From a virus: a stretch of DNA of 64,000 nucleotides. The stretch is taken from positions 1-64,000 of the IMG/VR virus record IMGVR_UViG_3300038558_000079. One strand, 5' to 3'. The notes under the pieces were generated by a model. The model was not told where the DNA came from. It ran no database searches and saw nothing but the letters and a program-made list of their open reading frames with translations. This document shows positions 3,194 through 47,431 of this stretch, one piece after another. The position numbers were made by a program, and so were the translations under genes. Within the stretch, counting starts at the first letter, position 1. The number at the start of each line of letters is the position of its first letter.

Positions 3194-3359
3194 ATTTGCC
3201 AAAAATCTTATTGATAACATACATTTTTCGGTGTACCTATTAGGAGATATGAATCTTTAGAGTGGTACTTTGCAATGTAAGGCACGCCATGCAGTAATCA
3301 ATGAATAACTTTACATTAAAACCGATAAAAATCCTCGAATCCCTCTCTATGTACACTTC

Positions 3360-3415
3360 CTAGCTTCCGACATGTTTACTCCTATATAGATATTGAAAAC
3401 AACATGTCGGAAGCT
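3360..3415. repeat. Dispersed palindrome copy 2
   Basis: ctagcttccgacatgtt-N24-aacatgtcggaagct. Confidence 0.97.
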
Positions 3416-3504
3416 GAGAGTTAATGCTAGTAAAGGGTGTAGCGTTTCTGAGAACCAAGTTTTGACACCCTTGAAAAACCCACTAAAATACCCTTTTACA
3501 TCCC

Positions 3505-3533
3505 TTGACAATATGAGAATCTTTAATTAATAT
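3505..3533 (+). promoter_or_regulatory. Cassette-associated sigma70 promoter
   Basis: TTGACA-17-TAATAT, about 90 bp after the palindrome. Confidence 0.7.
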
Positions 3534-3564: not shown

Positions 3565-4038
3565 ATGGATTTACAAGCGTATCAAGATTTTCTAATTGAC
3601 TATTCTAATAACTTAAATACCGATATTCCTTTGCCTACAATAGCGAGATTAGGGTTGATGGCTAAATCGGGAAAAGTGATAGGGGCACTGATGGAGAACA
3701 AGGTAGATGCGATCGCGCTCAAAGATGATTTAGGAGATACCTTATCATATTTTCTGCTAGTCCTGAATCATCTAGAAATGCCTTTAATAGCAATCGGGGC
3801 TATAGGTGGTTGTCTTCAGGTTCCTTTAGCAGATAACTACTTGTTCTGTGCAAGGAACCTATACACATGCGTTGACAGTTTTCTCAGGCTTAAGCTTGCA
3901 CGCGAGTCACTCGAATTATTAATAGCCATTATACGAATAGGGTTACTCTATGACATTAAACTTGAGGATATTGTGTCTTATAGCTGGGACAAACTTAAGA
4001 AGCGGTTAGATGAGGGTGAATTGCAAGGATTTTGTTGA
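3565..4038 (+). CDS. MazG-like NTP pyrophosphohydrolase fold protein, degenerate
   Basis: MDLQAYQ..LGLMAKSGKV..LKDDLGDTLSY..LEDIV...DKLKKR resembles MazG-like LGL.GE.GE/ELGD motifs with E to K changes; start moved to 3565, downstream of the promoter. Confidence 0.6.
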   Translation: MDLQAYQDFLIDYSNNLNTDIPLPTIARLGLMAKSGKVIGALMENKVDAIALKDDLGDTLSYFLLVLNHLEMPLIAIGAIGGCLQVPLADNYLFCARNLYTCVDSFLRLKLARESLELLIAIIRIGLLYDIKLEDIVSYSWDKLKKRLDEGELQGFC

Positions 4039-4082
4039 CCTCTCCCCGGTCTAAAGACACGGGGCTTTCAGCGACTCATCTT
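4035..4082 (-). mobile_element. 48-bp single-hairpin IS200/IS605 mini-element (PATE-like), copy A
   Basis: Reverse complement reads TTAC|aagatgagtcgctgaaagccccgtgtctttagaccggggagaggTCAA, i.e. the left and right ends of 12210-13846 fused through the shared hairpin. Confidence 0.9.
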
Positions 4083-4165
4083 GTAAATTCGTAACGCATA
4101 TCAAATCTATCGGCAATGTCAGTAAATGTATTATACTAAGAGAGTAAACACAAAGGAGAGACAAG

Positions 4166-4636: not shown

Positions 4637-4913
4637 AATTGCGCTAACTAACTATCTTCAATGCACCCTTAGTGACTCAAATATTAAGGGTGTCTTTTTG
4701 TGTCTATTACAGCAGTATTAGTGCATACCTGACAGGCTGATAAATTCTTAATCATATCGAGCTACGCATGGGAATTTAACTCTCGGTAGGTATTAGTAAA
4801 GTTGAGAAATGGCAGTGACACAGCGTAACGTACATCGACCCATACAGTAGTCAAATGAACAACTTTGCATTAAATCCGATAAAAATCCCCGAATCCCTCT
4901 CTCTATACACTTC

Positions 4914-4969
4914 CTAGCTTCCGACATGTTCTATCCTATATAGTAATTGAAAACAACATGTCGGAAGCT
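4914..4969. repeat. Dispersed palindrome copy 3 within a ~350-bp cassette (4790-5140)
   Basis: ctagcttccgacatgtt-N24-aacatgtcggaagct; upstream ~120 bp identical to 10878-10996. Confidence 0.97.
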
Positions 4970-9461: not shown

Positions 9462-9998
9462 ATGAGTGACATATACAGCCTCATCGATGAAATGAAAATC
9501 AATCTGAGTTATAACAAAGCTACTAATCTCTGGAGTGCTACAGTAGGTGATTATACCGTAAAAGGTGCTACTGTCGAAAGTGCGGTGGAAAAATTCTTAC
9601 TACCTTCACACTGGTTACCAAAGGGTGAATTCTCCTATCCTGAGCATGATTGTTACTGGCTTGTTAGGAAAATCCGCGATCATTATGGATTGGATACCCC
9701 GAATTTCAAGTGGGTGTATGAGGCGTACCCAACAATAGCCTCACAACCTCTTGATTTAGCAGAACGATGCTTAAGTGGTGTTGCAACATTGAGAGTAGGG
9801 ACACCTCACCACTTAGATATAGCTCTTCTCTCACAAAACATCAACGCAGACTTAGGTACAGTTTTGGTTGTAGGTAATCACATCTGGATTGCATATATGT
9901 CGCATAAAGGTGCTGTTGCAGAACCTCTAGAGCGACGTGTAGGACGGATAGTAAAAAGCTATTGGGAGATACCGAATTATTCTCTGCATGTCGAGTAG
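9462..9998 (+). CDS. NlpC/P60-like tail tip assembly protein (gpK-like)
   Basis: HDCYWLVRKI..HYG...P motif; later Y.SH. Confidence 0.65.
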   Translation: MSDIYSLIDEMKINLSYNKATNLWSATVGDYTVKGATVESAVEKFLLPSHWLPKGEFSYPEHDCYWLVRKIRDHYGLDTPNFKWVYEAYPTIASQPLDLAERCLSGVATLRVGTPHHLDIALLSQNINADLGTVLVVGNHIWIAYMSHKGAVAEPLERRVGRIVKSYWEIPNYSLHVE

Positions 9999-10022: not shown

Positions 10023-10532
10023 TTGAACATGGAAAACCCTGTGACTACCGACGGCCTTAGCACAAACATAAAGCTAATCTATGACTATACTGAACAAGCA
10101 ATTAAAGTGGTAGATGCAAGCATTGACAGGTTAAATCTAAAGTTAGGACTAGTTTTTAGCTTAGATATAATCCTGATTTACTTTTTTATCAGCATTGCAG
10201 ATATCACCCCATTTCTACACTGTACATTGTGCTTAATATTAAGGATAATAAGTTACCACTTCTTAATATTCTCATTGTGCTTTTGCCTGTCTGGATTTAA
10301 GCCTAAGAAAAGCGGTTCCCTCATCCTACCTGAAGAATTGATAGAGAAATGCCTCACTATATCAGACTATCAGTACAGGGTTTTGATCGTAGAGAGTTGG
10401 AATCGTTCAATCAAGGATTTGGCAGAGAGTAGAGACTTAACATCAGTACAGTTAGATAGTGCCATCGCCAACTTAGCACTGGCTGCTATCTTTGCAGCCA
10501 TAAGTGCAATGGCATCTGTATTATTAGGGTAG
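10023..10532 (+). CDS. Membrane protein (about 3 TM segments), possible moron
   Basis: Three hydrophobic stretches. Confidence 0.65.
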   Translation: MNMENPVTTDGLSTNIKLIYDYTEQAIKVVDASIDRLNLKLGLVFSLDIILIYFFISIADITPFLHCTLCLILRIISYHFLIFSLCFCLSGFKPKKSGSLILPEELIEKCLTISDYQYRVLIVESWNRSIKDLAESRDLTSVQLDSAIANLALAAIFAAISAMASVLLG

Positions 10533-10557: not shown

Positions 10558-10728
10558 ATGAACACACCAAAAAAAGAGATAAGTATTTACGATATCGCCT
10601 ATTTCAATTGGCTGAGAAAAATAGTTGTGGAGACTCACCAATTGGAAGTAGAGAAAGTTGCAGCAGAATACAATAGGAAACTTGCTGAAACTAAAGTAGA
10701 GGGAACCATTGACCTCTCCCCGGTCTAA
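10558..10728 (+). CDS. Small hypothetical protein, C-terminus altered by mini-element B
   Basis: MNTPKKEISIYDIAYFNWLRKIVVETHQLEVEKVAAEYNRKLAETKVEGT then IDLSPV* from the element. Confidence 0.55.
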   Translation: MNTPKKEISIYDIAYFNWLRKIVVETHQLEVEKVAAEYNRKLAETKVEGTIDLSPV

Positions 10729-10756
10729 AGACACGGGGCTTTCAGCGACTCATCTT
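10709..10756 (-). mobile_element. 48-bp single-hairpin IS200/IS605 mini-element, copy B
   Basis: Identical to 4035-4082, followed by GTAA (TTAC target). Confidence 0.9.
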
Positions 10757-10999
10757 GTAAGAATTAAGCCCTGGATAATACTAGCTGTTATCCTTTGGTG
10801 TATGGTGCAACACTTTAGATGCAGAGTGAATAGCAAGAAAGTTATTTGACAGTGTGGGGTTTTTATGCCCGGTAAATATTAGTAAAGTTGAGAAATGGCA
10901 GTGACACAGCGTAACGTACATCGACCCATACAGTAGTCAAATGAACAACTTTGCATTAAATCCGATAAAAATCCCCGAATCCCTCTCTCTATACACCTT

Positions 11000-11057
11000 C
11001 TGGCTTCCGACATGTTCTATCCTATATAGTAATTGAAAACAACATGTCGGAAGCCAG
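11000..11057. repeat. Dispersed palindrome copy 5
   Basis: ctggcttccgacatgtt-N24-aacatgtcggaagccag; both arms carry complementary changes. Confidence 0.97.
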
Positions 11058-11144
11058 GAGTTAATGCAGGCAAAGGATGTAGCGTTTTCGAGAACCAAGT
11101 TTTAACAACCTCAAAAACACCGCTAAAATACCCTTTTACACCCC

Positions 11145-11173
11145 TTGACATCTTAGAGGAATTGAATTAGTAT
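11145..11173 (+). promoter_or_regulatory. Cassette-associated sigma70 promoter upstream of omegaRNA
   Basis: TTGACA-17-TAGTAT. Confidence 0.75.
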
Positions 11174-11179
11174 GGATAC

Positions 11180-11440
11180 AGTAAAACAAAAGAAAGCAAA
11201 GTCAACAACCCCGGTCTAAAGACACGGGGCTTCCAGCCTAAAAAACTGAAGCCCGGAAGTTGACCAGCCTCAGTCGCAAGACTACGTTATCGGTAAGCGT
11301 TAAAGTTCATACCAGGAAATGCGAAGCTAGTTTCCTGCTCTAGAACCGAAAAGTTAAACAGGCGTAACGGGTTAAGTCAGTGCTTTTTGGATAGTACCGA
11401 CCGATAACATTGGCGAAGCTAACTTTACTCCGAAAGGAGA
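11180..11440 (+). ncRNA. HEARO / IscB omegaRNA with a 5' guide derived from flanking DNA
   Basis: gtcaacaacccc..ggggctt..gttgaccagcctcagt..gactacgttat..atacc.ggaaatgcgaagctagtttcc.gctcta..gttaaaca..cagtgc..ataacattggcgaagctaactttac matches the HEARO consensus order; ends approximate. Confidence 0.85.
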
Positions 11441-11570
11441 TTGAGGCAACCATACCTCACCGGAGGGGCAACCATACCCCTCCACCCTGAAAGGGGCAGG
11501 CGGTTAAAACCGCTTCCACATGTTCCTCTCCGGTCTAAAGACGCGGAGTTTCCCACAACGAAGGAATTTT
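11201..11570 (+). mobile_element. Non-autonomous IscB-type IS200/IS605 element lacking iscB
   Basis: Terminal hairpins ccccggtctaaagacacgggg and ctccggtctaaagacgcggag; flanked 3' by ATGA. Confidence 0.85.
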
Positions 11571-11813
11571 ATGACACCTTACCAACATTGTATCGAAACA
11601 GTACAGTTACTCCCTACAGTCTTTGTAGTCGCTTATGTGAATTGGTTAGGGGACTGGGTGATGGACACTCAGGAATTCAGAACAGAGAAGTCTGCACTGG
11701 CGCATAGTAGGGTTTTAGCCAAGACTAAGGCTGAGAACGGACGGGTTAGTGTCAGGAAAGTTATTAGTTCCAAGTTTAAAAGAGCTAAATTGCAACAGAA
11801 CACAAAACGTTGA
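11571..11813 (+). CDS. Hypothetical protein (80 aa)
   Basis: ATG immediately after the element, with an element-supplied AAGGA RBS. Confidence 0.65.
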   Translation: MTPYQHCIETVQLLPTVFVVAYVNWLGDWVMDTQEFRTEKSALAHSRVLAKTKAENGRVSVRKVISSKFKRAKLQQNTKR

Positions 11814-11838
11814 CATTCTCCGGTTTTTGTGTTAGACT
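11810..11838 (+). promoter_or_regulatory. Sigma70 promoter for candidate ncRNA 1
   Basis: TTGACA-17-TAGACT. Confidence 0.65.
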
Positions 11839-12268
11839 TACTTATGACATAAGTTCTCGACACTAGCATAAAGGTTAGTGAGTCCCCTGAGAAGAGAACC
11901 CTAATTTCTTTTAAGTTACCCAAGTCACAGACAGGCTTGGGTAACTTAACCGTATGCCATTGCACGCTTTGAGCGTTTTCAGGGAATGGTTATTCATCTA
12001 GTGGTACTTTTCGACGTTTTTCAACGATGCGTCACCACGATCGCGACCGTTTTGTTGCCTACCTTCCCGTAGCTCACCCCTTTGTTGTAATTGCGCAGAA
12101 CTGTGGGGCGATCGTCGGACATGTGTCACCCGCTGGGGCGACAGCTACTGTAGTAAGCATCCGGTCTTCCTTTGATAGAGTCCACGAAAGTGAAGCCGAA
12201 GTACTTTACAAGATGAGTCGCTGAAAGCCCCGTGTCTTTAGACCGGGGATGAAAGCGCTTTGCAGGAT

Positions 12269-12457
12269 TTATCCTACCTTCCAGATCTCGATCAATTCAG
12301 GTAACGCCGATCTTAGCCGCTCTTGCCAATCAGGGACAGATTTTAATTCTTTGGCTAATTCTACATCCATCCTTAAGCAGACTGGACTACTGACCAATGG
12401 TTTTTCTCGGTTAGTCGTAAAACCTTGTTTATGTTTTTTCTGAAATGGCATTGACAT
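12269..12457 (-). CDS. Small RHH/CopG-like protein in the IS
   Basis: PVCLRMDVELAKELKSVPDWQERLR beta-helix-helix pattern; divergent from tnpB. Confidence 0.55.
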   Translation of the reverse strand: MSMPFQKKHKQGFTTNREKPLVSSPVCLRMDVELAKELKSVPDWQERLRSALPELIEIWKVG

Positions 12458-12514
12458 CTTCTAACTACATGCGTATACTTATATTATAAGTCCGAAGCAG
12501 GAGGTGTCAATAAG

Positions 12515-13813
12515 TTGTACGGATGCCAACAGAATTTAATTAGTCCCACTCCAGAATTAAAGGCAATCCTTGAGTTTATCTGTTCAGAATCACATAAGCT
12601 GACTAACTGCGGTATCTACTATGCCCGTCAGTTATATTTCAAGACTCGTAAGTTAATTGGTAAGTACGACTTAGAAAAAGAGTACAAAGCCAACAAGCAC
12701 TATCAGGTCTTGCATTCTCAAGCCGCACAGCAAGTATTGAGAACAGTTGCTGAGTCTTTTCAATCTTTTAAGGAGTTAGATAAGAAGTACAGCAAGGGCG
12801 ACTTACATTTTAAACCCAAGCTGCCCAAATACCGTCAAGGCGCTGGTTATGCTCTAGTGACTTATCCTAAACAAGCTTTAAGACTTGTAGGTAACAATAT
12901 CAAAGTTCCGCTGGGCACGACAGTAAAAAGATGGTTTAAACTTGAATATTTCTTGTTGCCAATGCCATCCAATTTGGAGTTTGAGGACATCAAGGAATTG
13001 CGGATACTCCCACGTAATCAATGCTTCTATTCTGAGTTGGTCTACAAACAGAAACCAGCACCATCAAACACTTTCAATCAAAATAATGCGTTAGCAATTG
13101 ACCCCGGTATCAACAACTGGTTAAGCTGTGTATCCAATGTGGGGACTAGCTTCATTGTTGATGGACGTAAAGTTAAAAGTCTTAATCAGTGGTACAATAA
13201 GCGCGTTTCCACTCTCAAGGAAGGTAAACCACAAGGCTATTGGGATGAGCAGTTAGCCCAGATAACTGAAAAACGCAATCGCCAGATGCGTGACGCTGTT
13301 AATAAGGCGGCTAGATTGGTTGTTGACCACTGTATTAAATACCATATTGGCACGGTTATCTTTGGGTGGAACCAAGGACAACGGCAAGAGGCTAAATTAG
13401 GTAAAACAACTCAGGCTTTTGTTCAAATACCAACAGCCAAATTAAAAAAACGAATTGAACAACTGTGTGAGTATCACGGAATTAAGTTTGTTGAAGCAGA
13501 AGAATCTTATACTAGCAAAGCTAGTTTTCTAGATGGTGATTTTCTACCAACCTACGGCGAAAAACCCGAAACGTGGAAGCCAACAGGAAAACGAGTTAAA
13601 CGTGGAATGTACTGCACTGGCAAAGGTGTTCTAATCAACGCTGATTTGAACGGAGCCGCCAATATAATGCGGAAAGTAGAGACACAACTGGGCTTAAGTC
13701 TAGTCAAGGTCTGTAGGGCATTATTGACCGTGCCTACCAGATTTAAAATCTGGGAAACCAAAACCAAAAAGCGGAACCGGACGGCTTTAGCCTCCGGTGT
13801 AGCAACAGTTTAG
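12515..13813 (+). CDS. tnpB: RNA-guided endonuclease TnpB
   Basis: AIDPGINN, IFGWN, EESYTSKAS, NADLNGAANI. Confidence 0.95.
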   Translation: MYGCQQNLISPTPELKAILEFICSESHKLTNCGIYYARQLYFKTRKLIGKYDLEKEYKANKHYQVLHSQAAQQVLRTVAESFQSFKELDKKYSKGDLHFKPKLPKYRQGAGYALVTYPKQALRLVGNNIKVPLGTTVKRWFKLEYFLLPMPSNLEFEDIKELRILPRNQCFYSELVYKQKPAPSNTFNQNNALAIDPGINNWLSCVSNVGTSFIVDGRKVKSLNQWYNKRVSTLKEGKPQGYWDEQLAQITEKRNRQMRDAVNKAARLVVDHCIKYHIGTVIFGWNQGQRQEAKLGKTTQAFVQIPTAKLKKRIEQLCEYHGIKFVEAEESYTSKASFLDGDFLPTYGEKPETWKPTGKRVKRGMYCTGKGVLINADLNGAANIMRKVETQLGLSLVKVCRALLTVPTRFKIWETKTKKRNRTALASGVATV

Positions 13814-13945
13814 AATCCCCGTGTCTTTAGACCGGGGAGAGGTCAAAGTGATTTGAAGTTCTAGCAGTAGCAGTCTCATCTGACACTACCCCAATGGTAT
13901 GCGGTGTAAGGGTTTTAGGAATCTAAAGATTATTTTATAAAAGTA

Positions 13946-13974
13946 TTGACATTACCTGAGTAACGAGCTATAGT
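13946..13974 (+). promoter_or_regulatory. Sigma70 promoter, duplicated at 14214-14242
   Basis: TTGACA-ttacctgagtaacgagc-TATAGT. Confidence 0.8.
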
Positions 13975-14003
13975 AGATATAACGAGAAAAACAGGAGACA
14001 GCA

Positions 14004-14231
14004 ATGATTAAGTTTAGCGACTTGATTGGGAAAACCGTAAAGATTGTAGATGTTAAAAAATCTGATGAAGATGAAGACTCAGCATCTTCACAAGAACTCG
14101 TACTGGAGGTAGATGGTGTCCGGTATACCTTGGAAGCTATTGGCTACAATTACGGGGACGATCCTCAGCAGGACGTTTTTCTCTGTGACAACACAGAGAT
14201 TCGTATAAAAGTATTGACATTGCCTGAGTAA
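14004..14231 (+). CDS. Small acidic protein, tandem paralog 1
   Basis: MIKFSDLIGKTVKIV...VRYTLEAI; GGAG RBS. Confidence 0.75.
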   Translation: MIKFSDLIGKTVKIVDVKKSDEDEDSASSQELVLEVDGVRYTLEAIGYNYGDDPQQDVFLCDNTEIRIKVLTLPE

Positions 14232-14270
14232 CGAGCTATAGTAGATATAACCAAAAAAAGGAGACAAGCA

Positions 14271-14459
14271 ATGATTAAGTTTAGCGATTTAGTTGGGAAG
14301 ACTGTGAAGATTGTAGGGGTTAAGGGTTCAGAGTATGATGAAGACGATGAGTATTCAAAAGGAATAGTAATAGAAGTAGAAGGTGTCCGGTACACCTTAG
14401 AAGCTATTGTTTTCGGGTACGGCGATGATGCAGAGATTTGGCTCTGCGAAAAACACTGA
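14271..14459 (+). CDS. Small acidic protein, tandem paralog 2
   Basis: MIKFSDLVGKTVKIV...VRYTLEAI; promoter and RBS duplicated with it. Confidence 0.75.
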   Translation: MIKFSDLVGKTVKIVGVKGSEYDEDDEYSKGIVIEVEGVRYTLEAIVFGYGDDAEIWLCEKH

Positions 14460-14477
14460 ATCTCCTGACACTAATTA

Positions 14478-14532: not shown

Positions 14533-15027
14533 TTAATGTTGAGTCCGGATAACAGCAACAGCATCATCATGATTCAGTCCCGCGATGCGCAACATATTGT
14601 ATCCAGATTCCGCACGATTCAAAATCTGTAACAGATTGTAGTCCCAGGTATCAACACCTGTCAGTGGTAGTTTACAAGCCTTCTTGAAGTGATTAACCTC
14701 CCATCCCCAATTAACGGCCTTGTTATCGCCCCCAGCATCGTGCTTGAGCCATTTTGTTAAGTATGGGTGGAAGTGTTGACGGTGTTGCATCCGTTGTGCG
14801 AGGTATTGTTGGCGTTCTTCTTTTTCAAACTTGATACCAAAGGCATCGCAGAATAGTTGATGCAGTGATAACCCGATTAATGAGCGAGAAAATTCTTGTG
14901 CCCGTTCATTCCCCTTCAACGCCAACTCAAATACCAGTTTTTCAAAATCCTTGAGCGCGATCGCATTTACTGCTTTCGGGTGTAATGATGTCTTGAGTTT
15001 GGCGAATTGGGAACCCTTACCTAGCAA
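14533..15027 (-). CDS. Antirepressor-like DNA-binding protein, probably 5'-truncated
   Basis: Frame continues upstream as VPQVATQFQIDKNQASRDIKALL without a clear ATG; LVFELALKGN..AQ motif. Confidence 0.5.
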   Translation of the reverse strand: MLGKGSQFAKLKTSLHPKAVNAIALKDFEKLVFELALKGNERAQEFSRSLIGLSLHQLFCDAFGIKFEKEERQQYLAQRMQHRQHFHPYLTKWLKHDAGGDNKAVNWGWEVNHFKKACKLPLTGVDTWDYNLLQILNRAESGYNMLRIAGLNHDDAVAVIRTQH

Positions 15028-16605: not shown

Positions 16606-16662
16606 CTAGCTTCCGACATGTTGTATCCTATTATAGATAAAGTAGTAAACATGTCGGAAGCT
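16606..16662. repeat. Dispersed palindrome copy 6
   Basis: ctagcttccgacatgtt-N25-aacatgtcggaagct. Confidence 0.97.
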
Positions 16663-16827
16663 GAGAGTTAATGCAGGCAAAGGATACAGCGTTTTCTGAA
16701 CTCAAGTTTTAACAACCTCAAAAACGCCTCTAAAATACCTTTTTATACCCCTTGACATCTTTGACTAACATGGCTCTATCCGTTGGTATTTGTGGTATTG
16801 TACACGGCTAGAGCATAATTGACTTGG

Positions 16828-17309: not shown

Positions 17310-17539
17310 GAGAGTCTTACACCGAATGCGTTGTAGGCTTTTTGTGAACCAAGTTTTGAAAAGTGCTTTGGGATGCCCTTCCCTGTCTGTTTTCTCTAAT
17401 GACGGTTGTGGTGAGGGGAGTTTCGAGGTATGATAGGTATCGTGTAGATAACCCTCATAAGAACACCACCGTCGCTGGAAACTCCGTGTCTTTAGACCGG
17501 AGATGAAGGCGCGGCAGCGGTTTTAACCGCCTAGAGTCT

Positions 17540-17944
17540 TTAACTGTGATGTGGATCATTGATGTACCTCTGAATTGTTTCAGCGCTCACATTGCCAGCC
17601 GTTGAGAAAAAGTAGCTGTTAGTCCACAAAGATGGAAGCTTTTGAAGCTCTGGAAACTCCTTTCTCAGGTAATTGGCTGAACGCCCTTTAAAGGCTTTTA
17701 CCACTTGGTAGATAGCATCAGTTGGATGAATCTCAACAAATAGGTGAATATGGTCAGGAGCCACTTCAAGCGCCCTAATGCGCCAATCTTTCTCCATTGC
17801 CAATTCAGAGAATATCTCGTATATTCTGTCTCGAATTTTACCCACAAGCACCTTTTTGCGACGTTTCGGTATCCAAACAAAATGAACCACGCATAACCCA
17901 ACAGAATGATTATAGTGCCTGTACTCGTATGAATTTTTTCGCAT
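17540..17944 (-). CDS. tnpA: IS200/IS605 Y1 transposase TnpA
   Basis: HFVWIPKRRK, PDHIHL (HUH), LWTNSYF, IQRYI. Confidence 0.96.
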   Translation of the reverse strand: MRKNSYEYRHYNHSVGLCVVHFVWIPKRRKKVLVGKIRDRIYEIFSELAMEKDWRIRALEVAPDHIHLFVEIHPTDAIYQVVKAFKGRSANYLRKEFPELQKLPSLWTNSYFFSTAGNVSAETIQRYINDPHHS

Positions 17945-18010
17945 TTTATCCCCGGCTGGCTTGACTGTTGTTCTTATTGTAGATTATAATAGATAAACCA
18001 ACAAAAGCCA

Positions 18011-19348
18011 GTGAGGTCGAAAATGGCTAAAAACAAGAAACAGCTAGGCGTTCAACAAATACTACTCCATCCCGACAAGGAGACAAAGGCTGTTCTTGAA
18101 TATTTGTGCGAACAGTCCGGTAAGCTGTACAACAGTGGGGTGTATTTTGCGCGTCAAACATTTTTCAAGACTGGTAAGTTACTGACGGGAAAGTTTGACT
18201 TAGTTTATGAGCAAACTGTAGGAAAAAGTCAGATTGCTCAGTCCTTACCGTCAACACCTGCGCAGCAAACATTATTGAGCGTCACCGAAGCGTTTAAATC
18301 CTACAAGGAATTGCGACAGCTCTGGGTTAAAGGACAATTGTCAGATAAGCCAAAACCACCTAATTATTTGAAGGGGTCAAAACTATTTAAGGTGGCATAC
18401 CCTAACTCAGGAGGTCAAAAGCCAAAAACAGTTGATGGGCAACTTCAATTCTCTCTCGGATTAACAGTTAAGCGATGGTTTGGCGTTGACAATTTTAAGC
18501 TACCGATACCAACAAACCTGGATATAACCAAAGTTAAAGAGTGGACAATACTTCCTAAAAATGGTGCATTTTATCTTGAAGCTTCCTACACTCTCGCTCA
18601 AGAGCAAACTTGTCGAGAATTTGCCAATCAAGCATTAGCAATTGACTTGGGTACTGCTGACAACTTAGCAGCTTGCGTTGACACATTAGGCAACTCTTTT
18701 TTGATTGATGCTCGTGCGATGAAAGCTTTCAATCAGTGCTGGAATAAACAAGTAGCAACCAGAAAAGAAAAAAAACCTGAAGGGTATTGGGACGCATGGC
18801 TTGACCGTGTAACTCGTAAGCGCAACCATCGAGTGAGAGATGGTATAAACAAGGCGGCAAGGATTATTGTTAGCCATTGTCTCAAGTACAGAATCGGAAC
18901 AATCGTCATAGGCTGGAATGAAGGCTTTAAGTGCAATGCCAATATGGGTAGATTGAACAATCAAAAATTTGTCCAAATACCATTGGGTAAGCTTAAAGAT
19001 AGGATCGAGCAATTGTGTGACTTGTATGGCATTAGGCTTGTGATAACCGAAGAGTCCTACACAAGCAAAGCTAGTTACTTAGATGGAGACTCCCTACCCA
19101 AATATGGTGAAAAACCAGAAGGGTGGAAAGCATCAGGTAAAAGAACAAAGCGCGGGTTGTACACAAGCAAAAATGGCTCACTAGTAAATGCGGACTTAAA
19201 CGGTGCCGCAAACATAATGAGCAAAGTAGCCAGAAAGCTAGGCATTGACTTAGCCCGACTGGGTAGACGGTCTTTGACAACCGTAACGAGAATCAGATTG
19301 TGGGTACTACCTCAGTCTACTCTGTCTGTAGAATCCCCGTGTCTTTAG
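18011..19348 (+). CDS. tnpB: RNA-guided endonuclease TnpB
   Basis: AIDLG, VIGWN, EESYTSKAS, NADLNGAANI. Confidence 0.95.
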   Translation: MRSKMAKNKKQLGVQQILLHPDKETKAVLEYLCEQSGKLYNSGVYFARQTFFKTGKLLTGKFDLVYEQTVGKSQIAQSLPSTPAQQTLLSVTEAFKSYKELRQLWVKGQLSDKPKPPNYLKGSKLFKVAYPNSGGQKPKTVDGQLQFSLGLTVKRWFGVDNFKLPIPTNLDITKVKEWTILPKNGAFYLEASYTLAQEQTCREFANQALAIDLGTADNLAACVDTLGNSFLIDARAMKAFNQCWNKQVATRKEKKPEGYWDAWLDRVTRKRNHRVRDGINKAARIIVSHCLKYRIGTIVIGWNEGFKCNANMGRLNNQKFVQIPLGKLKDRIEQLCDLYGIRLVITEESYTSKASYLDGDSLPKYGEKPEGWKASGKRTKRGLYTSKNGSLVNADLNGAANIMSKVARKLGIDLARLGRRSLTTVTRIRLWVLPQSTLSVESPCL

Positions 19349-19434
19349 ATCGGGGAGTGTCAAAAACCACTGATGAAAGTCATTTTCCTACTTGACACCC
19401 TTTTGCAAACGAGTAAAAAACTTTCAAGCACCCC

Positions 19435-34285: not shown

Positions 34286-34741
34286 CTACGAAAATGTGGT
34301 TTTATAATATTCCTGTTCCAGGAATTGGGTGATGCACCCGGATACTACCTCGAGATTGTATTGTATTGTGATTGGTAGCGCTTCTATTTTTAGAATGTCA
34401 CCATCTCTAAGAATATAATTATTGGAGATGGCGACATCATCTTTTGTAATAATCATTTTCTTTGATTCAATTGAGAGTACATGTAGAATCTCGCCATTCA
34501 CACTTTCGGTGCAACGGATAAAACCAATATGCCGTGACACATAATCACTAGGTATATAGATTCCCTCATCAGTATTTTCAGTCAAAGGCGAACGCCCTAA
34601 TGCTACTGTATATCCGGGTTTTAAAGGTATCCTGTAATAAGGTGCTGTATACCCGCAAGCGGTATGAGGTCTACCTAGTTCCGTATTAGATGATTTTTTT
34701 GTATGTTTTTTTTGTTCTAGCTTAATAATAGCGAAGTTCAT
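34286..34741 (-). CDS. FHA-domain protein
   Basis: LGRS...I.IPS.YVSR.H/I...L.DGD.L.I. Confidence 0.7.
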   Translation of the reverse strand: MNFAIIKLEQKKHTKKSSNTELGRPHTACGYTAPYYRIPLKPGYTVALGRSPLTENTDEGIYIPSDYVSRHIGFIRCTESVNGEILHVLSIESKKMIITKDDVAISNNYILRDGDILKIEALPITIQYNLEVVSGCITQFLEQEYYKTTFS

Positions 34742-47101: not shown

Positions 47102-47240
47102 GGTCTTATGTCTCTTTTTGCTTTACTGTGTCCATAATAATTCAAATCTTCTAAGGTGTCAAGTGGTGTCTGAAAGAATTTTTAGGTGATTTCAAAACTT
47201 GGTTCTCAGAATCGCTACATACCTTACTGGTATTAACTCT

Positions 47241-47297
47241 CAGCTTCCGACATGTTGTTTTCAATTACTATATAGGATAGAACATGTCGGAAGCCAG
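47241..47297. repeat. Dispersed palindrome copy 10, in an inverted cassette (~47100-47430)
   Basis: Spacer is the exact reverse complement of the spacers of copies 3 and 5. Confidence 0.97.
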
Positions 47298-47431
47298 AAG
47301 GTGTACAGAGAGAGGGATTTAGGGATTTTTATCAGATTTAATGCAAAGTTATTCATTGGACTACTATATGCGATGATGTACGTTACACTATATCAGTACC
47401 AGATTTAAACTTTACTAATACCTACTGAGAC

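Follow-up and report, generated by a model that had tools for sequence, protein, structure and literature searches.

Does a transposon in a viral genome divide one structured RNA, or does it lie beside a conserved sequence that is complete without it? The question arises in the window analyzed here, the whole stretch of 64,000 nucleotides that comprises positions 1-64,000 of IMG/VR record IMGVR_UViG_3300038558_000079 (full record, 90.5 kb). A first-pass annotation proposed a hidden structured RNA whose two closing helices span a TnpB element and form only once that element is removed. The interval is better described, with fair probability, as three layers of different age than as one split RNA gene.

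Relatives of the locus were sought at several levels. Positions 11560-12209, queried as DNA against the phage collection, gave no match, and four syntenic loci reached through the neighboring protein 14533-15027 (~50% amino acid identity) have no nucleotide similarity to the flanks. Viral contigs contained no relatives of the proteins 9462-9998 and 10023-10529, of the small-gene alignment, or of the 80-aa-ORF alignment; a genome-contig match to the last of these, in an Acidobacteria MAG, was spurious (19 residues). Exact DNA patterns of the locus are absent from viral and genome contigs and occur at two loci in metagenome contigs. The fetched relatives number two, L013 and L014, both ~91% identical to the window and possibly derived from one project. 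Twelve runs are listed as carrying the sequence, none of those listed being an RNA run, and the contig comparison covered X1-X5, with the small-share runs X6-X12 outside it. The features of the interval are as follows.

11201..11570, + strand: orphan HEARO (IscB omega RNA) mini-element (Rfam RF02033, 157 bits), separate from the proposed RNA
11571..11813, + strand: conserved small ORF of 80 aa, whose stop overlaps the -35 of the next feature
11810..11838, + strand: sigma-70-like promoter TTGACA-17-TAGACT with TG extension (promoter scan)
11846..12108, + strand: conserved non-coding unit of 263 nt, a candidate RNA, intact in the window and ~91% shared with L013 and L014
11911..11949, + strand: 16-bp hairpin, kept in L013 and L014
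12015..12088, + strand: 74-nt core, invariant in the window, L013, and L014 (sequence comparison)
12109..12209, no strand assigned: left part of a 161-nt lineage-specific segment, present in the window, X2, and X5, absent from L014, and replaced in L013
12206..12209, + strand: TTAC target (putative TAM), abutting the left end of the element on its 5' side
12210..13846, + strand: TnpB-only IS200/IS605-family element of 1637 bp (Pfam, end hairpins, exact empty site in X2)
12515-13813, + strand: tnpB, inside the element
13847..13906, no strand assigned: right part of the 161-nt segment, carrying strands 13861-75 and 13892-905
13906..13909, - strand: GTAA, a minus-strand TTAC, the insertion point used twice, by the 161-nt segment and by the L013 mini-element (sequence reading)
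13946..13974, + strand: next promoter, TTGACA-17-TATAGT, for the small-gene cassette (promoter scan), present in L014

Borders of the TnpB element and its empty site

The 432-aa ORF of the element (12515-13810) carries two Pfam domains, PF01385 (OrfB_IS605; 1.7e-16, 61 bits, cut-off 30.5) and PF07282 (Cas12f1-like TNB; 4.7e-8, 33.5 bits, cut-off 26.3). Its end hairpins, CCCCGTGTCTTTAGACCGGGG, lie on the same strand at 12228-12248 and 13817-13837, and this hairpin was found in eight of eight aligned element ends. Two 52-nt mini-copies have ends in common with the TnpB element, terminate at identical bases, and are likewise preceded by TTAC. In run X2, a metagenome from a different study, a 1114-nt contig joins 11571-12209 directly to 13847-13992, skipping 1637 nt and differing from the window at 11 positions in 13847-13992. 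The join of 12209 to 13847, on which the first-pass annotation built its RNA, therefore coincides with the true element borders, as given by the ends of the mini-copies and by the X2 joint, and an allele without the element exists naturally. The element inserted 3' of TTAC with no target-site duplication, and the empty site is seamless. Contigs of run X1, which may be the source sample, do not contain the 12209|13847 joint, an absence that is uninformative since contigs drop rare variants. Another X2 joint, 10754 to 14208, was set aside because one side spans just 37 nt.

No Y1 (HUH) TnpA is encoded within 12210-13846. PF01797 (TnpA) matches lie elsewhere in the record, at 17555-17902 and 86948-87313, both on the minus strand, and the element is thus non-autonomous. 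One of these two Y1 genes resides in an element whose end hairpins are near-identical, which makes excision in trans plausible: the phage's own TnpA could remove the TnpB element. At the right end, the omega RNA region (13600-13860) gave no Rfam family above noise; the first ~16 nt of 13847-13906 would be the guide-matching target of the element's putative omega RNA.

The phage record as a whole carries four tnpB genes, two tnpA genes, an orphan HEARO, and two hairpin mini-elements. The HEARO mini-element is missing from X2 and X4, both of which have the exact joint 11200|11571, and when these 370 nt are removed an ATG becomes the first codon of the 80-aa ORF. That ORF has four relatives (P0002-P0005) at 88, 66, 57, and 54% identity, its own copy excluded, and shows pS of 0.228 and pN of 0.068 between the window and L013. 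An attP core at the locus was also considered and rejected: the record has no integrase or resolvase, and the core 20-mer occurs in no reference genome.

Transposon-spanning helices and the 161-nt segment

Taken at its strongest, the split-gene reading posits a functional RNA of ~430 nt (11846-12209 plus 13847-13935) in which the TnpB element holds the strands of the closing helices apart, with insertion disabling or refolding the RNA and precise, TnpA-mediated excision restoring it. Its building blocks are present in the window: gttctc (11853) and gagaac (11894), ccctgagaa (11885) and ttttcaggg (11976), and the strands of the spanning helices, accgtatgccattg (11949) with caatggtatgcggt (13892) and gacagctactgtag (12140) with ctagcagtagcagtc (13861), the latter helix comprising 13 bp and containing a single mismatch and a single bulge. 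The pairing of 11885 with 11976, annotated as a possible pseudoknot, turns out to be an ordinary nested helix in every fold. The octamers acgatcgc (12037) and gcgatcgt (12108) are also located as described. Their complementarity is trivial because each is a near-copy (7/8 match) of the frequent palindromic octamer GCGATCGC (HIP1), which occurs 19 times in the window versus 0.17 expected.

Folding of the element-free sequence lends the split RNA some support. The joined 453-nt plus strand reaches -143.6 kcal/mol, compared with -123.6 +/- 5.3 for 100 shuffles (z of -3.73; minus strand, -2.71). Both spanning helices occur in this minimum-free-energy (MFE) structure, which is favored by 9 kcal/mol over the unit fold combined with a separately folded remainder. 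An uninterrupted helix of at least 14 bp with at most two G-U pairs arose in 2 of 300 dinucleotide shuffles, while the real joined sequence has two, namely the hairpin 11911-11949 and the helix 11949-62/13892-905; with G-U pairs unrestricted, 14 bp was reached in 9% of 200 shuffles. Both G-U pairs of the 14-bp spanning helix are compatible with the plus strand only. The C at 11950, which adds a pair to this helix, appears derived, as L013, L014, and a paralogue described below have A, and the 12131 C>T change in X2 and X5 retains its pair as U-G. The existence of an empty-site allele and of TnpA in the record also suits excision.

Comparison with relatives points the other way. The similarity of both L013 and L014 to the window ends at 12108. 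L014 is without the 161 nt (12109-12209 plus 13847-13906) that house three of the four helix strands (12140-53, 13861-75, and 13892-905), and its GTGGGG runs directly into TAAGGGG (window 13907), so that window 12108 is joined to 13907; the junction at 13906..13909 is ambiguous by 1 nt (G). L013 has a different IS200/605-type mini-element at the same point, with the IS end at 12107/8. The 161-nt segment is known only from the near-identical relatives X2 and X5 (~98-99% there), and by itself it is not unusually structured on the plus strand (z of -0.34; minus strand, -2.15). Because the transposon sits in a lineage-specific 161-base insert downstream of the unit, the ~430-nt RNA is not a conserved one across the two fetched relatives. 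The two spanning helices stand as real complementarities in the joined MFE fold but are unsupported as parts of a conserved RNA, and a functional ~430-nt molecule is improbable. More doubtful still is a variant confined to the window/X2 lineage, in which the 161-nt 3' extension re-pairs with the interior of the unit (11949-62 with 13892-905) into an alternative, more stable 430-nt fold and TnpB insertion and excision act as a heritable switch between two conformations of an early-region RNA.

Judged against two relatives of ~91% identity, the 161-nt indel may be either an insertion in the window lineage or a deletion in the relatives. The segment has no other copies in the 90.5-kb record or in viral contigs, which speaks against a repeated mobile element. 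An IS200/605-derived nature, suggested by its TTAC position and by hairpins near both ends read by eye, is speculative.

The conserved 263-nt unit as candidate RNA or DNA site

All that is conserved at this locus is located 5' of the element. Even while the element is present, the unit 11846-12108 is predicted to close on its own 5'/3' helix (11848-68/12084-12106), and this closed fold persists when the first 290 nt of the element are appended, which speaks against the proposal that closure requires removal of the element. TTGACA at 11810 and TAGACT at 11833 were correctly annotated; the promoter they define has 10/12 matches and a TG ahead of the -10, and all 29 of its 29 bases are invariant across the window, L013, and L014. 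The unit differs at 17 of 242 nt versus 10.1 of 44.2 synonymous sites in the adjacent ORF (Fisher p 0.003), a divergence ~3x slower than that of the neighboring gene's synonymous sites, which phage mosaicism could imitate. The 74-nt invariant run within it has P = 0.00065 if the 32 variable columns are uniformly placed.

The unit folds with an MFE of -84.1 (z of -4.06). Stability exceeding that of shuffled controls in a strand-specific manner was found for the unit (plus strand, -4.36; minus strand, -1.95), for its L014 counterpart (z of -3.74), and for the joined sequence, in agreement with the plus-strand polarity read from the G-U pairs by the first-pass annotation. Against the background, 4 of 50 windows reach a z of -4, and the true HEARO RNA is among those four. 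Rfam gave nothing at E up to 10 in 11846-12209 and 13847-13935, HEARO (11201-11428) being the only match over the 64 kb, and ARAGORN reported 0 genes; the flanks thus match no curated family, whether tRNA, tmRNA, RNase P, introns, riboswitches, GOLLD/ROOL, or others. Covariation, whose absence the first-pass annotation named as a refutation, yielded one compensatory pair among 79, equaled in 159 of 500 shuffles of three near-identical sequences, so that none is demonstrable. With the same three sequences, an unbiased substitution test of structure compatibility was not significant (P 0.04-0.57). The consensus structure is less stable than the individual MFE structures by 4-19 kcal/mol, and a structure shared by the three is tentative.

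A possible origin of the unit is found within the same phage. Unit columns 5-145 are paralogous to 80095-80234 on the minus strand (E 5.3e-13), the leader and 5' end of a 277-aa helix-turn-helix-like gene at 80098(-), and the unit may have arisen from the duplicated promoter, leader, and first codons of that gene. The idea that it is a pseudogene of the 277-aa paralogue beyond the first codons was dropped, as tblastn gave no significant match.

This paralogy with the 5' end of a gene is also the starting point for an explanation without functional RNA, which is rather unlikely: the unit would be a decaying partial duplicate of the 80098(-) gene in which selection keeps the promoter and protein-binding repeats, with folding as a by-product. 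The putative repeats are of the AAGTTA(G/C)C type, a motif read by eye, and include the palindromic 16-bp pair. In agreement with a DNA site, the hairpin's 5' arm and blocks close to it survive in the paralogue (~30/33 identical, counted by eye), but only 22 of 43 unit pairs do; the fold is not retained, the 16-bp hairpin is reduced to ~5+3 bp (partly read by eye), and the paralogue's leader has a weak fold (-15.2 kcal/mol over 149 nt). The lack of significant covariation among the three sequences and of a terminator-like site 3' of the unit fits as well. However, no repeat is obvious in the 74-nt invariant core, which is situated 3' of the leader-derived part, and the strand asymmetry of the fold is unexpected for a DNA site.

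The annotation's finding of no credible ORF is borne out, the longest in the joined sequence being at most 106 aa from stop to stop, and coding is unlikely for the unit because of a 1-nt indel at 11926/7 in the alignment of the window, L013, and L014 together with all-nonsynonymous changes. A small protein, read from ATG 11986 (28 aa, aligning with the paralogue start region) or from ATG 12027 (65 aa in the window, 66 aa element-free, and ~33 aa in L014 by our own reading), is very hard to credit: there is, by eye, a resemblance between the 28-aa frame and the first codons of the paralogue (H..LF.DV..C) and, by hand translation, the 12089-12101 changes in the 12027 frame amount to two synonymous codons and three conservative replacements, but each of the five differences within codons 1-11 of the 28-aa frame is nonsynonymous (hand translation), the 12027 frame has no synonymous change in its first 21 codons and wholly different C-termini in the window, L013, and L014, no Shine-Dalgarno sequence is present, and a comparison of the 65-aa micro-ORF with 5.8 billion proteins gave nothing but the window's own copy.

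Three layers and their known counterparts

The three-layer reading, which we prefer, may be ordered as (i) the conserved 263-nt unit 11846-12108 behind its invariant strong promoter, in a row of small promoter-led units of a freshwater cyanophage, (ii) the 161-nt segment of the window/X2/X5 lineage, which follows the unit directly and is placed at a minus-strand TTAC, the point where L013 has its mini-element, and (iii) the 1637-bp TnpB-only IS605-family element, which would have landed at a TTAC within the second layer. It follows from this order that the conserved unit is uninterrupted by the transposon. The unit would be made from the 11810 promoter, either as an RNA of ~260 nt or as the leader region of a longer one, and may act at the level of RNA or of promoter-proximal DNA; with the element present, it would be transcribed first and close on its own 5'/3' helix. 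The spanning helices would then belong to the young 161-nt segment, one being its inverted repeat and the other pairing its 3' end with 11949-62. On sequence grounds, the locus thus appears to hold an ordinary nested transposon insertion next to a candidate non-coding RNA of the phage.

The locus provides a natural allele series, with and without HEARO, the TnpB element, and the 161-nt segment, that shows IS200/605 turnover at TTAC sites inside one phage lineage. The unit, apparently derived from the duplicated 5' end of a phage regulatory gene, offers a candidate route by which small RNAs originate in phages. Were the ~430-nt idea true, the locus would be a first example of a structured phage RNA gated by an IS605 element.

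The element resembles the non-autonomous TnpB-only members of the IS200/IS605 family, with ISDra2 and IS608 as paradigms, in its OrfB_IS605 and Cas12f1-like TNB domains, same-strand subterminal hairpins, tetranucleotide TTAC, lack of duplication, seamless empty site, and TnpA in trans. Unlike these paradigms, it is phage-borne and nested in a 161-nt segment that is itself perhaps an insertion, and its omega RNA and activity are putative. HEARO, the IscB omega RNA (RF02033), belongs to the same transposon superfamily and provides a structured RNA 420 nt upstream, whose first hairpin and the TnpB element's end hairpin are reverse complements of each other; in contrast, the flanks under study give no HEARO score, and the 370 nt with the HEARO copy form an insertion of their own. 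IStrons likewise combine a TnpB element with flanking structured RNA, and their RNA-level "repair" of the host transcript underlies the idea of the first-pass annotation. Here, however, the pairing lies outside the element ends (12210 and 13846, fixed by the empty site), removal would occur at the DNA level, and a search of 10800-14400 for Intron_gpI, the mark of an IStron, gave no match with E allowed up to 10. In the heterocyst nifD, fdxN, and hupL elements and in phage "regulatory switches", an interrupted gene is made whole by precise excision. These systems rely on site-specific recombinases dedicated to them, and the genes that they interrupt are conserved, whereas the conserved unit of this phage is left uninterrupted by its transposon.

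Conservation and folding of the 263-nt unit

The conserved part of the locus is a short non-coding stretch behind a strong promoter; the 5′ part of this stretch has a second copy elsewhere in the 90.5-kb record:

11810-11838, plus strand: promoter, TTGACA-17-TAGACT with a TG extension (promoter scan)
11846-12108, plus strand: 263-nt non-coding unit
80095-80234 of the record (G000, locus L016, outside the window), minus strand: paralogue of the 5′ 140 nt of the unit, running from the -10 region through the leader into the start of a 277-aa ORF

Searches of viral contigs for the unit or for adjacent sequences, of a phage collection and of genome contigs gave no match, and a metagenome contig search returned two relatives, L013 and L014. 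The window, L013 and L014 share the promoter without a single difference. The unit differs between the window and L013 at 24/262 positions (17/242 without the hypervariable patch 12089-12101), as compared with 10.1 synonymous differences over 44.2 synonymous sites in the adjacent 80-aa ORF (pS 0.228, pN 0.068; Fisher p 0.003, rising to 0.016 when the patch is counted). This ORF is a genuine gene and has four relatives at 54-88% identity. Positions 12015-12088 form an invariant run of 74 nt (P = 0.00065 were the 32 variable columns uniformly placed), and both relatives share a 1-nt insertion at 11926/7.

On its own, the unit has an MFE of -84.1 kcal/mol (z -4.06), a value matched by none of 200 shuffles, and the structure is closed by a 5′/3′ helix (11848-68 with 12084-12106). 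A repeat of the fold gave z -4.36 for the plus and -1.95 for the minus strand, and the L014 unit has a z of -3.74. Of 50 background windows taken from the record, four have z ≤ -4, one of them being the true HEARO RNA. HEARO is also the sole Rfam family in the window (11201-11428, 157 bits); the flanks of the TnpB element matched no family, even with E allowed up to 10, and ARAGORN found 0 tRNA and 0 tmRNA.

For covariation, RNAalifold places 79 pairs on the three sequences. One change is compensatory, turning a C-G pair of the closing helix into U-A; 11 changes are compatible on one side, and 3 cells are broken. In a shuffle control that is powerless at three rows, 159/500 shuffles do as well. 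Each sequence's own MFE is lower than the energy of the consensus structure by 4-19 kcal/mol. A substitution test, in which the structure is taken from a single sequence and the other sequences' substitutions are scored for sparing its pairs, gave P values of 0.04-0.57 (plus) and 0.35-0.99 (minus). Because of the weak shuffle control, the consensus energies and the substitution test, a shared structure is not demonstrated.

The paralogue was found with the three-sequence alignment (nhmmer, E 5.3e-13) and corresponds to columns 5-145. Its 277-aa ORF has helix-turn-helix-like repeats, is divergent to a 136-aa ORF, and encodes a protein with no similarity to the remainder of the locus. Similarity to the unit is ~65%, fading ~50 nt into the coding region; 22/43 predicted unit pairs are retained, and the paralogue leader folds weakly (-15.2 kcal/mol, 149 nt). 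The unit therefore resembles the copied 5′ end of a gene in which the ORF was lost and the promoter kept or improved.

A layered history, in which the unit is the functional entity and probably acts at the RNA level, is the reading that we consider reasonably probable. Functional signals at the DNA level only are rather unlikely.

Pairing across the transposon

The first-pass annotation had proposed a hidden structured RNA of ~430 nt that closes only once the TnpB element is removed. Its sequence observations are sound, every motif lying where it was placed. With the element removed, the joined plus strand (453 nt) has an MFE of -143.6 kcal/mol (z -3.73; minus strand z -2.71), and the predicted structure includes both transposon-spanning helices (11949-62/13892-905 and 12140-53/13861-75). 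A helix of at least 14 bp with at most two G-U pairs arises in 2/300 dinucleotide shuffles, which together with the joined-fold z upholds the pairing observation; with G-U pairs unlimited, such a length occurs in 9% of 200 shuffles. Enforcing the unit fold on the element-free sequence yields -134.6 kcal/mol, a cost of 9 kcal/mol, so the modelled thermodynamics favours the long-range helices, while the order in which the RNA is made would tip the balance towards the unit fold. Position 11950 is A in the paralogue, L013 and L014, and the C of the window therefore looks derived (the base in X2, a metagenome run with a matching contig, is uncertain, one of eight left-flank differences being unlisted). 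C11950 gives the 14-bp helix one extra pair, a single data point in favour of that helix.

Closure of the unit does not depend on excision, as it is predicted to retain its closed fold when the element's first 290 nt are appended. Nor is the proposal of one hidden conserved RNA supported: the conserved part is the unit, untouched by the transposon, and the spanning helices lie in a segment that the relatives lack. L014 is 91.3% identical to the window over 11660-12108, after which its match resumes at ~13907 (GTGGGG/TAAGGGG), leaving the window with 161 extra nt (12109-12209 plus 13847-13906) that enclose the TnpB element and contain three of the four helix strands (12140-53, 13861-75 and 13892-905). 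In reverse complement, L013 is 90.7% identical over 11606-12107 and then passes into a reverse-complemented IS200/605 right end (GTGGG/TTGACACTCCCCGGTCTAAAGACACGGGG), a mini-element using the same bond as the 161-nt segment. This bond lies between GTGGG and GTAA (1-nt ambiguity), i.e., 3′ of a minus-strand TTAC. The segment is present in X2 and its left part in another run, X5; no other copy was found in the record or in viral contigs. Taken alone, its plus strand shows no exceptional structure (z -0.34; minus -2.15). The spanning helices belong to this probably young segment, and the 430-nt RNA is improbable. The element borders implied by the first-pass annotation are exact.

A 28-aa frame (ATG 11986) was rejected as coding, with 5/5 differences in its first 11 codons nonsynonymous by hand translation, as was a 65-aa ORF from 12027, whose C-termini differ among all sequences and which has no relatives. 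By sequence, the unit retains no surviving ORF, and an encoded micro-protein is very improbable.

The TnpB element and its phage setting

Mobile and repeated features of the record (window coordinates where within 1-64,000)
12210-13846: TnpB-only IS200/IS605-family element, 1637 bp
4035-4086 and 10709-10760, minus strand: two identical 52-nt mini-elements, left end fused to right end via one hairpin, each after TTAC
17555-17902 and 86948-87313, minus strand: tnpA, two record-wide
13439, 18986, 81706 (minus strand) and 88328: tnpB, four record-wide
11201-11570: orphan HEARO (IscB omega RNA) element, 370 nt, no iscB, inserted immediately before the start codon (ATG) of the 80-aa ORF
13936-14470: tandem duplication of promoter plus small gene, period 267-268 nt, 75 and 62 aa (MIKFSDL...)
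10877-11150 (hairpin 10997-11060): dispersed hairpin repeat; copies at 4791-4968, 3300-3510, 16648-16761 and 47194-47386, plus many partial copies

The window is the first 64 kb of the record, an IMG/VR virus entry estimated by CheckV as 71% complete; its best DNA match comes from a wetland metagenome and partial matches from freshwater and aquatic ones. The octamer GCGATCGC occurs 19 times in the 64-kb window against 0.17 expected. It is the cyanobacterial HIP1 signature, and the record is therefore treated as a cyanophage. Perfect TTGACA -35 boxes with 17-nt spacers occur at 11145, 11810, 12451, 13946 and 14214, each followed by a small unit, a row that looks like an early region rich in strong promoters. 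The small-gene cassette is single-copy in X2 (joint 13992/14259) and L014. The dispersed hairpin repeat has >20 arm copies over the record, is covered very deeply in X2, with variants, and may account for fold z values of ~-8 at 34701 and 85101. In L013 (reverse complement, ~830-1000), ~65-nt hairpin units GACTTTCATC...GATGAAAGTC are repeated, and these also border the second TnpB element of the window at its right end, near 19365-19390.

The 432-aa ORF at 12515-13813 encodes TnpB (OrfB_IS605, 1.7e-16; Cas12f1-like TNB, 4.7e-8). The borders 12210 and 13846 are exact, as mini-element ends and an X2 contig agree. Similarity to the mini-elements stops precisely at TTAC/AAGATG... and ...GAGGTCAA/, and the contig (1114 nt, depth 167; an aquatic metagenome from a different study) joins 11571-12209 to 13847-13992, skipping 1637 nt. 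The element-free allele that had been postulated, with joint 12209/13847, thus exists in nature. The 370-nt HEARO element is absent from the same contig and from a further run, X4 (exact joint 11200/11571). The first hairpin of the HEARO element and the end hairpin of the TnpB element are reverse complements of each other. Because X2 carries a full-length TnpB element (~92% identical, orientation as the mini-element) at the 10709-10760 site, the window's mini-element there appears to be a deletion derivative.

Four TnpB and two TnpA genes constitute an unusually heavy IS200/605 load for one phage record. The element that contains the first TnpA (17471-19364) and the 12210-13846 element have near-identical end hairpins. 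As is established for the family, its elements are excised precisely by TnpA (PMC5027513) and tnpA is essential for mobilisation (PMC8612924); as the record carries TnpA, excision of the 12210-13846 element in trans is plausible. The donor joint TTAC/AGTGATTTG... left after excision would in that case be the predicted target of TnpB and its omega RNA (10.1101/2023.03.14.532601; 10.1101/2023.11.20.567912).
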